From positions 806,001 to 870,000 of the forward strand of contig CP089278.1 of assembly GCA_023920165.1 (NCBI GenBank): DNA of 64,000 nucleotides, in the 5' to 3' direction. The position numbers and the translations under genes are program-made. The DNA is from Curvularia clavata. Lineage: Eukaryota. The notes beneath the pieces are model-generated. The model saw only the letters and a list, made by a program, of their open reading frames with translations. It did not search any database and was not told where the DNA came from. Of the stretch, positions 5,171-10,033 are shown piece after piece; positions within the stretch are counted from its first letter, which is position 1, and the number at the start of each line of letters is the position of its first letter.

Positions 5171-6081
5171 GTTGAGGATGTGATTGTGCTCGTAGGCGTT
5201 GTTTTCAAGAAAACTTTGTGAGTTGGAGCTCTTGAATAATTTACCGGATATCAATTGTAAGATGGCAAAGTCCAGGAGGGTCGAATTTCACAAACATACG
5301 TAGTTTGGAGAAGCTTTGACGAGGTGACGAGTAGATGCATAGGAAGCTCCTACGACGATGGAATGACGTCGATACGCCGAGGTATGGCCGAGGCACTCTC
5401 GCCCACGTGACTTACCCACACAACTGGCGAACTTGCTCATGCTGCCCGCGTCTCCAACGCGTGGGGCTATGTCAAACTACTGCGTACCCATCGACATCCA
5501 GGGATCCTTGATTTTCATATGCCAAGGCACCTGTCCCAGAATGGGAATCTGAGCTTGTCTTCAATTTCCAATGCAGGTTACCGCCTGGAGTCTTGAATAA
5601 ACCAAGCTTCCTTGAATTCTTGGAAAAACTTCCTTGTCGCGATAAATCTGCGAGTGTATGCCCCTAGCTGGCAACAATATTACTATTTGGAAGTGGACAC
5701 AGTGGCACTATGACAAGACATACATCTAGCCATATCAGGAATCTCAAAGTCTGAGCTCTCAACAGCTTTCATCGTTTACATTCTTATCTTTCCAGTCATG
5801 AAAGACGCTAAACCTCATTTAGGAAAAAGAAATCAACTAAAATGTTCTGCAGGAATGGATTTTCCCAGGCCAGAAGAGCCCAGGCGTTCAGGCAGTAATC
5901 ACGTGACTCGGTCTGGCCGTTGGAGCCTTGTCAGGCGTCTGCCACTCGTACAGTTGAAGGATTCATAGAAGAGAAACTTGACATAAAGACGCATCTAAGA
6001 CTTCTTCAACTCTGAACACTATCTTCTCTCCTCAGATCCATCCGTAAACACTGCCAAAACCTTTCTTCCCATCCATTGACT

Positions 6082-7764
6082 ATGGCAGTCTCAAGCTGGA
6101 TTCCTCCGCCCCCACCAGATCCTAACACACTCAAAAATCCTCCTCCTTTCGCTCCCTTCCCGGTTATCCAGCTACGCGCTGGAAAGATTAAAAAATCCCT
6201 CTGGAATGGCAAAATCGAATCAGCAATCTACAAAACCCCTCTAACCGGTCCAGTTGAGGTCGCTGAATTGGGTATTACCACGGATGCACATGCCTTCTAT
6301 AAGCATGTAAGCCCTGACAAGGCTCTTCTTCACTATTGCACATCTCACTACGACGAGTGGAAGAAGGAATTACCAGAATCAGAGCAATACTTCAGACCCG
6401 GCGCATTCGGTGAAAATCTATTCAACACAGAAGTCAGCGAGAAGAACCTTTGTATCGGTGACCGACTTGCCATTGGAGACATTATTGTCGAAGTCAGCGA
6501 GCCACGAGGACCATGCTTCAAACTTAATCACCGATTCGAGGTAAAGAATATGGCGAAGCGCACTCAGACTCTTTTGCGCACAGGCTGGTTGTATCGCATC
6601 ATTAAGACGGGCAGTATCTCAGCAGGAGATATGATTTCACTGTTAGAAAGACCGAACCCTGAGTGGACAGTGGCCCGTGTCATGTACTATCTCTTTATTG
6701 AAACCGACAATATGGAGATGATGAAGGAAATTGTCCAGATACCGCAGCTTGGTTGGGACATCAAGAGCCAATTCCAGGCTAGGCTCGATAAGGGCGTAAC
6801 TGAGGATCAGAGTGACAGACTGTTTGGTGGCGAAGACGAAAAGACGTTCACCTGGAATGAATATCGTCTCGTTGAGAAGAGGAAAGAGACCAAAACCGTT
6901 ACAGCGTTCACATTCGAGGCAACAGACGGTGTTTCCAACGCCCTACCCGTGGAGCCGGGCAGTCATGTACGGCTGAAGCTAGGTGGAAAATTGGTGCGCG
7001 CCTACTCAGTCGTTGGTGGAACATCCAAACGTTTTGAACTGGGCGTTGCCCTCGAACCTGATAGCCGCGGTGGTTCGAAGTACCTGCATGAGCAAACTAA
7101 CACTGGCGACGTTCTAACGGTCGGACGCATCACCGCCAGTTTTCCACTTGCCAAAGATGCAGACCGCCACATCATCATCGCTGGTGGCATCGGTATTACA
7201 GCCTTTATGGTAGCACTCGAGCACCTTCAGGAAACCAAGCAGAAGTTCCATCTCCACTACGCTGTCGCTGATGAAGTGCCCTTCGCAGCCAGGATTGCAG
7301 CACTAGGTTCTGATGTGACAATCTATAGAAAGTCGCTGGGTCAGCGTCTAGATGTCTCTGGGATCCTGGGTAAAGCCGATGATCGAACACACATCTATAC
7401 ATGTGGGCCGACTCGTTTGATGGATGATGTTGTCAGAACAGCAAACTCGTACAGTATCCCTGAGTCTTCTATTCATATCGAGGCATTCACCGCTGAGACT
7501 TCTGGCGACCCATTCACGGCAAAACTCAAGCAGAGCGATAGGGTGATAGAAGTTGGTCCCACCCAATCTCTGCTGGACGCGCTAAAAGCTGTGGGCATGG
7601 ACATTGATAGTTCATGCGAAGTAGGCAATTGCGGGACGTGTAAAGTAGATGTATGCTCAGGACGTATTGAGCATCGAGGCACTGCCCTGCAGGGCTTGGA
7701 GAAGGACGACAGCATGCTGAGTTGCGTCAGCAGAGGTATAGGCACGATCGTCCTCGACTTGTAA
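6082..7764 (+). CDS. MOSC (YiiM-like) / 3-alpha domain fused to a phthalate-dioxygenase-reductase-type FAD/NAD module and 2Fe-2S ferredoxin
   Basis: GAFGENL and EPRGPCFKL (MOSC); RAYS, GGS, AGGIGIT and YTCGP (FNR family); CEVGNCGTC...LSC (2Fe-2S). Single exon. Confidence 0.9.
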   Translation: MAVSSWIPPPPPDPNTLKNPPPFAPFPVIQLRAGKIKKSLWNGKIESAIYKTPLTGPVEVAELGITTDAHAFYKHVSPDKALLHYCTSHYDEWKKELPESEQYFRPGAFGENLFNTEVSEKNLCIGDRLAIGDIIVEVSEPRGPCFKLNHRFEVKNMAKRTQTLLRTGWLYRIIKTGSISAGDMISLLERPNPEWTVARVMYYLFIETDNMEMMKEIVQIPQLGWDIKSQFQARLDKGVTEDQSDRLFGGEDEKTFTWNEYRLVEKRKETKTVTAFTFEATDGVSNALPVEPGSHVRLKLGGKLVRAYSVVGGTSKRFELGVALEPDSRGGSKYLHEQTNTGDVLTVGRITASFPLAKDADRHIIIAGGIGITAFMVALEHLQETKQKFHLHYAVADEVPFAARIAALGSDVTIYRKSLGQRLDVSGILGKADDRTHIYTCGPTRLMDDVVRTANSYSIPESSIHIEAFTAETSGDPFTAKLKQSDRVIEVGPTQSLLDALKAVGMDIDSSCEVGNCGTCKVDVCSGRIEHRGTALQGLEKDDSMLSCVSRGIGTIVLDL

Positions 7765-7963
7765 TCTTCTTCATCACCCTACATGACTGCCAGTCAGCAT
7801 CCGGTCACTATATTTTCGACGGTAAAGCTGCCGTTTAGACCAGAGAATAGACATCAAACCATTCGCGAAATCCCCAGAATACTTTGACATAATCCAATAG
7901 AATATTCGCAGGACAATTTTGCCTGGTAATATCTGATCTAAACGCCACCGGCAATAACAAGCT

Positions 7964-8097
7964 GCTTGAGTGGCCAAGTGGTAAGGCGTCGCACTTGTAC
8001 CTTCAAGGTCATGCGAAGATCCATGGTTGTAAGTTCATCCCAGGTTCGAATCCAAGTTCGTCCTTCTAACACGCAACAGCGACTCCGTGCTTGAGCA
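7964..8097 (+). tRNA. tRNA-Thr(UGU) with two introns (8000-8010 canonical 37/38; 8029-8079 spliceosomal-type in the T-loop)
   Basis: Removing both introns gives a 72-nt cloverleaf: acceptor GCTTGAG/CTTGAGC+A, D-arm GCC/GGC, anticodon stem TCGCA/TGCGA with loop CT-TGT-AA, T-arm CATGG-TTCGACT-CCGTG. A-box TGGCCAAGTGG; T5 terminator at 8107-8111. Confidence 0.85.
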
Positions 8098-8111
8098 ACA
8101 AATCTCTTTTT

Positions 8112-8196
8112 GGTGACTTGGTGTAGTGGTCAAAGACATGGTCAGTCACCGAGTACGCGTTCTTTTTGACGGTTAGTTCGAATCTAGCAGCCATCA
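8112..8196 (+). pseudogene. Degenerate tRNA-like Pol III unit
   Basis: A-box TGGTGTAGTGG, T-arm GTTAG-TTCGAAT-CTAGC, acceptor-like GGTGACT/AGCCATC (one mismatch). No proper variable loop, unclear anticodon, internal TTTTT. Confidence 0.6.
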
Positions 8197-8736
8197 AATG
8201 TAGAGTTTTCTCTGCAGACCCACTCTACTATTTCTCTTACTGTCTACTTGCGAGGTAGTTGTCAGCTCCTCGTTCAAACAGCTAAAGTTTTCCTCTACGG
8301 CATTTTTACTTCTAAAGTAAGTGAATAAGAGAAGAAAGACTGAACTTATAGATAGAAAGAAAGAAATAGAGGAAACAAGTTCCTATCACGTGTCTAGGCA
8401 CGTGACAGAGCGAATCTTTGTTAACCAGCTGTGGAAGACGACGCGAAATTGGACATACCAATGTATTTACTACAAATAGGCAAGACTAGGCAGGCACTTT
8501 TAAGACCTAGGCCTTGCCCGTTAATGTGCCCCTAGGCAGGACTTCAAAGCAAGACGTTAAAACTAGAATTCGAAATCTAAACGCCAGCCCAAAAACCCTA
8601 ATCCCAATGCTTTATGCAAATGCAACAATGCTCAGTCATCCCACCGCATATTCAAGATCAAACTCTCCACCTCTTCACTACTCAGTCCTTTTCTCCTCTC
8701 TCTCCTCTCTACCTCACTTCCTTTGCTAGAAGAGAG

Positions 8737-9030
8737 TCACATGCTACCGTTGAACCACCACGCCGCTCCGACCGGCCACCCGAGAATGATGGCGTAGAAG
8801 GGGAAGTAACTACAAGCAGGAAAGTCAGCAACAAAGCTTATTATTTGATTGTCTAGGATGATGCAGGAGAGGACTTACACAGCACTTGTCTTTGCGAGTT
8901 TTTGGCCGAGATCGCCTGCGCGCCATGCATGAGGGGCCATGGTGATGGGGTTGCGAGCGAAAGGGTGTGGCTCGACCATTCCACGGGCAAGGGTGCGCCA
9001 CATGATGCGTGCTTGAGTTGGTGAAGGCAT
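8737..9030 (-). CDS. 74-aa single-pass membrane microprotein, two exons (possibly Cox26-like)
   Basis: Exon 1 9030-8879, intron 8878-8810 (GTAAGT...CTGAC...TAG), exon 2 8809-8737 giving ...TSAVYFPFYAIILGWPVGAAWWFNGSM*. Confidence 0.75.
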
Positions 9031-10033
9031 TTTGTTTGAGAGTTCTTTTGTTCTTGGAATAAAAACTTGAATAAGGTTGTTGTTTGGTTGGCTGGTTGAA
9101 AATCGAAGTATTTGAACCGGCTTTCGAATGTGTTGGTTGTGCAGATGGTAAAGTGACTTTAGATCTGTTGTAGTTTGTGTATCCCAAGTCGTAAATGTAG
9201 TGGTTGTTATTGATGCTGATGTTGAAGCTGATGTAGAATACACCACAACAAGCTCTCCATCTCTATTTATTACAGCCTGCGCAAAACAACAAGTGACTCT
9301 ACAAAACATCGCACCACCAGGCGTCGAATCGATCGCGTGAGATTCGCCCTCGTAATCCTTGGTCCAAGAACACCCGCATCCTTCCTGCCCTCAGTTCCCC
9401 AATTCAATCATCCACCGGCCCGCAGCATGTAGGCCCTGACAAAAGAAAAGAGCCTTGCCAGATGCCGAAGCGTGCACGAGAAAATACCCAAATAGGCAAC
9501 AAGTGGGATTTTGCATCGAAGACAGTCGCGCGTTGCCGGCAGGAATTACCAGGTTGGGCGGCTTTCTAGAGTACCGCCGTGCGGTGCAGGGGGCAGTGCG
9601 TGTTGGTGGTCGCGAGAGAATGGGGTGATATTTTGTTTTTGCGAGAGGCGGCGGCCGCCGAAATGCGGGTGCGGCATGGGCTTACCTAGCCGATGCGCCT
9701 GCGTGCCGGTCGTCGCACGACAATGGGGTGATATGCTGACATGCAGGGCTGCAGGTGTCTCTGGGACAGGATGATGTAACTCAGAGATAAGTTAATTGCG
9801 ATTTATGGGCAGCAGTTGGTGTTGTTTGAAGGTATGGTGCATAGTGTTTCTGCTGTGCTCGGTGTCATTGGTGAGCATTTTACCATTAACGTCACCACTA
9901 TGAAGGGACAGATCGCCAATCGAGGGCCTCGAATAGATGAATATAGTAGAAAAGAATAAATGCCGGGTATAATATTATCACACATGCTGACTGACCACCT
10001 TATTCCCTTACCTGCACCCCGCAAACCTCCTGC

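Follow-up and report, generated by a model that had tools for sequence, protein, structure and literature searches.

Can a tRNA gene be interrupted in its T-loop by an intron of the mRNA type and still be a working gene? This question is raised by a tRNA-Thr(UGU) gene in the 64-kb stretch of DNA analyzed here (the window), which carries two interruptions of different kinds. Here, we describe the structure of the gene, compare the signals of its 51-nt T-loop insert with those of introns nearby, follow the insert through public sequencing runs, and weigh how the insert might be removed, if it is removed at all. The parts of the gene are as follows.

7964..8097, plus strand: tRNA-Thr(UGU) gene, tRNA positions 1-73, with two interruptions (ARAGORN, after in silico removal of 8029-8079)
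7964..7999, plus strand: exon 1, tRNA positions 1-37 (5' strand of the acceptor stem, D arm, 5' strand of the anticodon stem)
7996-7998, plus strand: anticodon TGT, within exon 1
8000..8010, plus strand: canonical tRNA intron of 11 nt, placed at 37/38 by ARAGORN
8011..8028, plus strand: exon 2, tRNA positions 38-55 (3' strand of the anticodon stem, variable loop, 5' strand of the T-stem, T54 and T55)
8029..8079, plus strand: 51-nt insert that resembles an intron of the mRNA type (GT-AG) and separates T-loop positions 55 and 56
8080..8097, plus strand: exon 3, tRNA positions 56-72, with the discriminator A at 8097

Structure and surroundings of the interrupted gene

The first-pass annotation had predicted that standard scanners would probably overlook this gene or call it a pseudogene, and both programs used here missed it. 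ARAGORN called 0 tRNA genes in the uncut 64-kb window, even with its intron search switched on, and the Rfam tRNA model scored the uncut gene at 24.3 bits, below its gathering score of 29, in an alignment that forced the 3' half of the model onto the first bases of the insert. After 8029-8079 was excised in a script, ARAGORN called tRNA-Thr(tgt) and placed an 11-nt intron at 37/38, and excision of both segments gave a 72-nt tRNA product. The cloverleaf with anticodon TGT and the invariant positions is present only once 8029-8079 has been removed; by our reading of the sequence, U8, A14, G18, G19, A21, U33, A37, C48, G53, T54, T55, C56, A58, and C61 are then all in place. Two adjacent G-U pairs occur in the acceptor stem, and positions 13 and 22 form an A-A pair. 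Shifting either boundary of the insert by a single base alters the letters of the T-loop, so that the cut is unique when the sequence is read in this way; the boundaries are set by the tRNA and were not chosen to fit intron signals. The earlier proposal that 51 nt lie between U55 and C56, and that their removal along with 8000-8010 restores a 72-nt tRNA, was thus reproduced by ARAGORN, and all of its coordinates were correct when compared with the sequence, the ARAGORN calls, and a motif scan.

The exons were also compared with related genes. When metagenome contigs were scanned with 7971-7999, a 29-base part of exon 1, 14 loci were returned, all of them ordinary fungal tRNA-Thr(tgt) genes identical over those bases. 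The in silico spliced exons matched each of the 14 at 57 to 62 of 71 positions, the D arm had the same letters in every one (14/14), including the A-A 13-22 pair, and 4 of the 14 carried a 10-nt intron at 37/38. This comparison indicates that the exons belong to the normal tRNA-Thr(UGU) family and that the 11-nt intron is of the kind usual in that family. ARAGORN found a T-loop insert in 0 of the 14 genes; their acceptor stems differ from the one studied here, so none is an orthologue and the zero is uninformative about conservation of the insert.

Three features of the neighborhood are as follows.

6082-7764, plus strand: MOSC/ferredoxin gene, upstream
8114-8198: tRNA-like segment
8810-8878, minus strand: 69-nt intron of a small neighbor gene (GTAAGT..CTGAC..TAG), seen in joined form in contigs from three runs

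The upstream gene encodes a protein placed among clusters in which Ascomycota is the commonest phylum. The protein of the small minus-strand gene had no match in Pfam, searched exon by exon, or in the protein atlas. The segment at 8114-8198 was considered as a second split tRNA gene and rejected: an 801-nt search gave no Rfam tRNA match at E values up to 10, and 3,222 single excisions produced 2 ARAGORN calls, both with a poor anticodon stem. It is a decayed tRNA-like relic that adjoins the split gene.

Putative splicing signals and promoter elements

From its first removed base, the insert reads GTAAGT (8029-8034), which fits GTRNGT; a CTAAC branch motif follows at 8066-8070, its branch A (8069) lying 10 nt ahead of the final base, and the insert ends in CAG (8077-8079). 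We asked how often such a combination arises in the window, using a relaxed filter (GTRNGT at the start, CTRAY with its A 6 to 30 nt from the end, and YAG at the end) and a strict one (GTAAGT, CTAAC, and CAG). On both strands of the window, 4 of 127,900 51-mers passed the relaxed filter and 2 of 127,900 passed the strict filter, the insert itself being counted in each case. When length was allowed to vary from 35 to 120 nt, 61 of 11.0 million combinations of start and length in the window passed. The likeness of the insert to an intron is far above chance.

We also compared the insert with the introns of its surroundings. A heuristic search for intron candidates that join long open frames in the window gave ORF support to 11 of 59. 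These 11 candidates are 43 to 104 nt long, begin with GTAAGT, GTACGT, or GTGNGT, have the branch A 6 to 14 nt from the 3' end within CTAAC (6), CTGAC (4), or CTAAT (1), and end in CAG (5) or TAG (6). At 51 nt, the insert falls inside the local length range of 43 to 104 nt. The first reading of the locus had held that the insert matches the window's mRNA introns in size and signals, and the 11 ORF-supported candidates, together with the intron at 8810-8878, agree with it. As far as DNA can show, the insert thus has all the features of a typical intron of this genome.

Three further motifs bear on how the gene might be transcribed.

7971..7981, plus strand: A-box-like motif TGGCCAAGTGG, a putative internal Pol III promoter element
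8043..8053, plus strand: GGTTCGAATCC, inside the insert; matches the tRNA B-box/T-arm motif perfectly and is a putative promoter element
8107..8111, plus strand: TTTTT, a run resembling a Pol III terminator, 10 nt behind the gene (T-run scan)

We take TGGCCAAGTGG to fit the A-box consensus TRGCNNAGTGG, and GGTTCGAATCC is presumably a B-box. The insert splits the native B-box at 8028/8029 and yet holds a perfect GGTTCGAATCC at 8043-8053, an observation of the first-pass annotation with which the motif scan agrees. This 11-mer occurs as a single copy in the 64-kb window when both strands are scanned, and the chance expectation for a given 11-mer in 41 positions is about 1e-5. Such a copy would offer TFIIIC a binding place within the intron, and its sequence suggests that it could act as a promoter element of the gene. 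The first-pass annotation went further and proposed that the intron persists because it supplies this element, a role that would be plausible if the copy does drive transcription. Among T-runs of at least four within 7964-8125, TTTTT at 8107-8111 is the sole example, and none lies inside the gene; given this arrangement, Pol III could read the entire gene.

Public sequencing runs and alternative explanations

To follow the insert outside the window, four runs (X1, X9, X11, and X24) were compared with positions 6000-9500. The material consists of assembled Logan contigs, which show neither strand nor polymerase and drop rare forms; none of the 24 runs is on record as RNA, and the kind given for each is a guess. 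One contig of X9 (record 22; 498 nt, depth 2) covers 7813-8028 and 8080-8361 with a joint at 8028->8080. At this joint, exactly 51 nt are skipped, the skipped segment has GT..AG ends, 0 letters fit both sides, and the shorter side is 216 letters long. The same contig retains the 11-nt intron (8000-8010). The exact 51-nt excision that had been anticipated, with junction 8028->8080, is therefore present base for base in an X9 contig, be it RNA or DNA. Nor can the joint have come from a paralogue: exon 3 (18 nt) is shorter than the 31-letter word, so that words reach across the joint into the gene's own downstream flank, which leads us to infer that the joint arose at this locus. The joined form is seen in this one contig at depth 2, and X9 as a whole covers only 6106-8581, in six contigs all of depth 2 (longest record, 10.1 kb), with nothing over 8582-9500.

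The remaining runs place this contig in context. Over the part that it covers, X11 does not differ from the window (0 other letters in 1,033). X1 and X24, which come from two studies, both retain the 51 nt: X1 record 1 (6000-8525) has 75 other letters and 0 gaps, and X24 record 15 (7298-8162) has 31 other letters and 0 gaps. X1, X9, and X24 represent one diverged lineage, about 2 to 7% from the window; X9 shares 39 of the 40 listed X1 differences from the window over 6106-7954, the one at 6493 being private to X1, and its letters agree with those of X24 throughout their shared coverage. In X1 and X24, the intron of the neighbor gene is also found in joined form, which makes it probable that both runs contain RNA. 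If their contigs over the tRNA gene are sense transcripts, splicing of the insert is inefficient there, which counts against easy splicing.

The X9 joint may be spliced RNA or an intron-less genomic DNA allele, and alone it is no proof of splicing. Cover, holes, and depth of the contigs are unusable for telling RNA from DNA, and the hints within X9 pointed in opposite directions; on balance, we consider RNA a real possibility to which we give a little less than an even chance. An intron-less DNA allele in a nearly identical lineage would itself require precise loss, by the copying back of spliced RNA or by conversion from an intact paralogue, or it may stem from an old polymorphism.

The possibility that X9 is DNA lends itself to another account of the locus, namely that a 51-nt insertion killed one copy of tRNA-Thr(UGU), that the window, X1, and X24 carry this disabled allele and X9 the intact one, and that the intron signals arrived with the insert and go unused. 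A dead gene of this kind would be rejected by scanners when uncut, would have a broken native B-box, and would keep its insert in contigs such as those of X1 and X24, all of which is seen. We nevertheless consider it unlikely. The interrupted form is common to the window and to the lineage diverged from it by about 2 to 7%, and it has changed much less than its flank, where 12 differences were counted in 181 nt (7774-7954). Compared with the window, X9 has 0 differences in the 74 nt of 7955-8028, which take in exon 1 and the canonical intron (4.9 expected at the flank rate; P = 0.007), and X24 has 3 (31 minus 28) in the 208 nt of 7955-8162 (13.8 expected; Poisson P = 0.0006). The X9 list accounts for every other letter up to 7954, and the 3 X24 differences cannot be assigned to positions within their segment; if all 3 fell in 8029-8162, P would be 0.02. 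With far fewer differences than its flank, the interrupted gene has been constrained since the lineages of the window and of X1/X24 split, unlike a dead gene. This measure comes from one close lineage and applies to the gene region as a whole.

The composition of the insert argues in the same direction. The invariant tRNA positions around it are all intact, and a random insert would almost never bring GTAAGT, CTAAC, and CAG, each in its place, together with a perfect B-box. Nor does it show the marks of a mobile intron-like element (introner) or a transposon: neither the window nor the 14 metagenome tRNA-Thr(tgt) loci contained a further copy, and there are no duplicated target letters at its ends (0 shared letters at the X9 joint).

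The reach of the contigs points to another reading. Contigs of X1 (5772-8535 in record coordinates), X24 (7298-8162), and X9 (6106-8581, in abutting contigs) span from the upstream gene to past the TTTTT run, and the joined X9 contig extends beyond the tRNA gene by 150 nt upstream and 260 nt downstream, with the 11-nt intron kept. A contig that reaches so far past the gene on both sides would, if RNA, derive from a long transcript and not from a Pol III precursor. The 51 nt could then be intronic sequence in a Pol II transcript crossing the locus, either a long 3' end of the MOSC/ferredoxin gene or a non-coding RNA, from which the tRNA is released by RNase P and RNase Z or in which it is a mere tRNA-like element; Pol III and the intronic B-box would play no part. 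However, a contig over two genes neither proves a single transcript nor shows a strand, and X9 is possibly DNA. Moreover, a complete A-box, a copy of the B-box spaced workably from it, and a terminator immediately behind the gene are all present here and would be superfluous for a passenger. We therefore regard this reading as improbable, to about the same degree as a disabled allele.

The location of the insert in the T-loop, outside 37/38, recalls the introns that the tRNA splicing endonuclease removes in Archaea and in Cyanidioschyzon merolae, and TSEN would in any case be needed here for the 11-nt intron. We therefore looked for a bulge-helix-bulge in 25 registers across both insert junctions, with the 11-nt intron as a control. 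At the insert, the central 4-bp helix reached at most 3 pairs, and the best overall arrangement had 2 of 4; the control showed bulge-helix-bulge-like pairing at 4/4 plus 3/3, or 7 of 7. Free folding of the precursor and of its 3' part was no better than that of shuffled sequences (z of -0.77 and +0.92), so structure accounts for neither the insert nor its removal. Endonuclease cutting also has no need of GTAAGT, CTAAC, and CAG, which are nonetheless exactly placed. On the basis of its position at 55/56 and the absence of a bulge-helix-bulge in this modeling, the 51-nt insert does not appear to be a TSEN-type intron, and we regard cutting by the endonuclease as very unlikely. Least credible of all is an assembly error or an accidental likeness within a decayed tRNA relic, which the relic at 8114-8198 might bring to mind, given that the insert is gap-free in the window and in contigs of two more runs from two studies (X1 and X24), that intron-like 51-mers are as rare as 4 in 127,900, and that the exons are intact.

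Proposed processing and comparison with known systems

Taken together, these observations lead us to favor, at a probability of roughly 60%, a functional nuclear tRNA-Thr(UGU) gene of ascomycete origin whose T-loop holds a spliceosomal intron and whose anticodon loop holds a TSEN intron. The agents and the order of events (spliceosome, Pol III, role of the B-box, and sequence of steps) are inferred. The gene would be transcribed through both introns to the TTTTT at 8107-8111, most simply by Pol III, which would use the A-box at 7971-7981 and the intronic B-box at 8043-8053; the intronic copy is invoked because the native B-box is split. The spliceosome would then excise 8029-8079, a step needed before the T arm can form, and the folded precursor would go on to ordinary end trimming and TSEN splicing of the 11-nt intron. 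Counted against this scheme are the length of exon 3, at only 18 nt with a short trailer, and the location of the 5' splice site within structured RNA, a setting that a spliceosome may or may not accept. In addition, other intact tRNA-Thr(UGU) genes may do all of the decoding work. We hold the scheme in its complete form more tentatively, at somewhat less than even odds: a Pol III precursor with its B-box inside a spliceosomal intron, acted on first by the spliceosome in the T-loop and second by TSEN in the anticodon loop, with the X9 contig as the first direct trace of the spliceosomal step, whether as spliced RNA or as an allele made from spliced RNA that was copied back.

If the favored reading is correct, a spliceosome-dependent tRNA would connect two pathways that textbooks and reviews keep apart. 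RNase P, RNase Z, and TSEN all need the T arm to recognize their substrate, which puts the order and place of processing in question. tRNA finders overlook such genes, so that counts of fungal tRNA genes may be too low and some isoacceptors may be listed as absent in error. The exact 51-nt skip in public data makes the question of splicing directly testable in this lineage.

Canonical eukaryotic tRNA introns lie at 37/38 and are removed by TSEN and tRNA ligase, according to PMC10275265 and PMC12530127. The intron at 8000-8010 is of the same kind; the 51-nt insert differs from it in position (55/56), in having no bulge-helix-bulge, and in its spliceosomal signals. A spliceosomal intron in a tRNA gene had been thought undescribed, and our full-text literature search, whose scope excluded most subscription journals, likewise found no report of one; term look-up in the reviews PMC10275265 and PMC5855946 found none. 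Passages of a 2025 paper (PMC12530127) and of a 2023 review (PMC10275265) treat spliceosomal and tRNA introns as unrelated.

Three known systems resemble the present gene in part. tRNA introns at non-canonical positions occur in Archaea, Cyanidioschyzon merolae, and nucleomorphs, where a bulge-helix-bulge marks the intron and the endonuclease removes it. As in those tRNAs, an intron lies here outside the anticodon loop (their sites include the T-loop) and there is more than one intron per gene; unlike those introns, the insert has GT-AG ends and branch signals and no bulge-helix-bulge. In the protein genes of fungi, introns are polymorphic for presence and absence and can be lost precisely. 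If X9 is DNA, the locus likewise has alleles with and without the intron, with exact boundaries and no duplicated letters; it departs from that pattern in that the host is a tRNA gene, and the difference exists at the DNA level only if X9 is DNA.

Among known systems, the mRNA-type introns of fungal U6 genes come nearest. The U6 snRNA gene of Schizosaccharomyces pombe, reportedly described by Tani and Ohshima in 1989 and 1991 and by Frendewey et al. in 1990, is said to be transcribed by Pol III and to hold a match to the B-box inside an mRNA-type intron. Like that gene, the tRNA-Thr(UGU) gene is a small gene of the Pol III type for a structured RNA, with a short GT-AG intron that has full spliceosomal signals and a B-box-like motif inside it (GGTTCGAATCC, 8043-8053). 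Splicing and Pol III transcription have been shown for U6, whereas the tRNA-Thr case is known from sequence. Unlike U6, the host here is a tRNA, and a second intron of the endonuclease type is present. Because the host is not an snRNA, the usual explanation for the U6 introns, reverse splicing at the catalytic center, is not directly applicable. The window contributes a B-box motif within the intron and, in public data, a contig that skips exactly these 51 nt; if the favored reading holds, the U6 precedent for spliceosomal splicing of a Pol III transcript would extend to the most abundant class of Pol III RNA.

A second tRNA-like element and its downstream spacer

Behind the tRNA-Thr(UGU) gene and its Pol III terminator-like TTTTT run lies a further element:

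8114-8198, + strand, second tRNA-like element, starting 2 nt past the TTTTT run

This element has a sequence resembling an A-box, TGGTGTAGTGG, together with a good T arm (GTTAG TTCGAAT CTAGC), and 6 of the 7 acceptor-stem pairs are formed. It is without a workable anticodon arm and contains an internal TTTTT. An Rfam search returned no match for the element, and 3,222 trial excisions submitted to ARAGORN yielded only two calls, both poor. The element looks like a decayed tRNA gene. When contigs from X24, a public sequencing run of a diverged lineage, were compared with the window, a low-difference stretch was found to take in part of it. Further downstream, one X24 contig has three other letters instead of the 54 nt at 8295-8348; this replacement is a between-lineage indel difference in the spacer that follows the tRNA locus.

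Protein-coding neighbors on either side

Two genes flank the tRNA locus:

6082-7764, + strand, intron-less open frame of 560 residues, counted from the first ATG
8737-9030, - strand, small gene encoding a protein of 74 residues and interrupted by an intron at 8810-8878

The upstream frame encodes MOSC, YiiM 3-alpha, DmmA-like N-terminal and 2Fe-2S ferredoxin domains, and the protein-atlas clusters closest to its product are for the most part from Ascomycota. Its end is separated by 200 nt from the tRNA-Thr(UGU) gene, which lies on the same strand. Antisense to the end of this MOSC gene, weak C/D-box snoRNA family matches were observed at 7716-7783 (- strand; snoR12, 15.8 bits; sR39, 15.0 bits; E 0.4-7.8; far below cut-offs); the segment includes a GUGAUGA box, and the matches are probably due to chance.

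The 69-nt GT-AG intron of the small gene was joined across in contigs of three public runs (X1, n = 11; X11, n = 1; X24, n = 2), and the X11 contig extends to 8128, antisense to the tRNA-like element. The predicted protein has a hydrophobic stretch in its C-terminal part; Pfam searches with each exon matched no family, and a protein atlas search gave no match.

Ordinary fungal tRNA-Thr(tgt) genes

Among 14 ordinary tRNA-Thr(tgt) genes of fungi found in metagenome contigs, four (L001, L004, L006 and L012) have an intron of 10 nt at 37/38. The one in L012 is similar in sequence to the 11-nt intron of the window's tRNA-Thr(UGU) gene, and the two genes match at 96% over 51 nt that cover the D arm, the anticodon arm and the intron.
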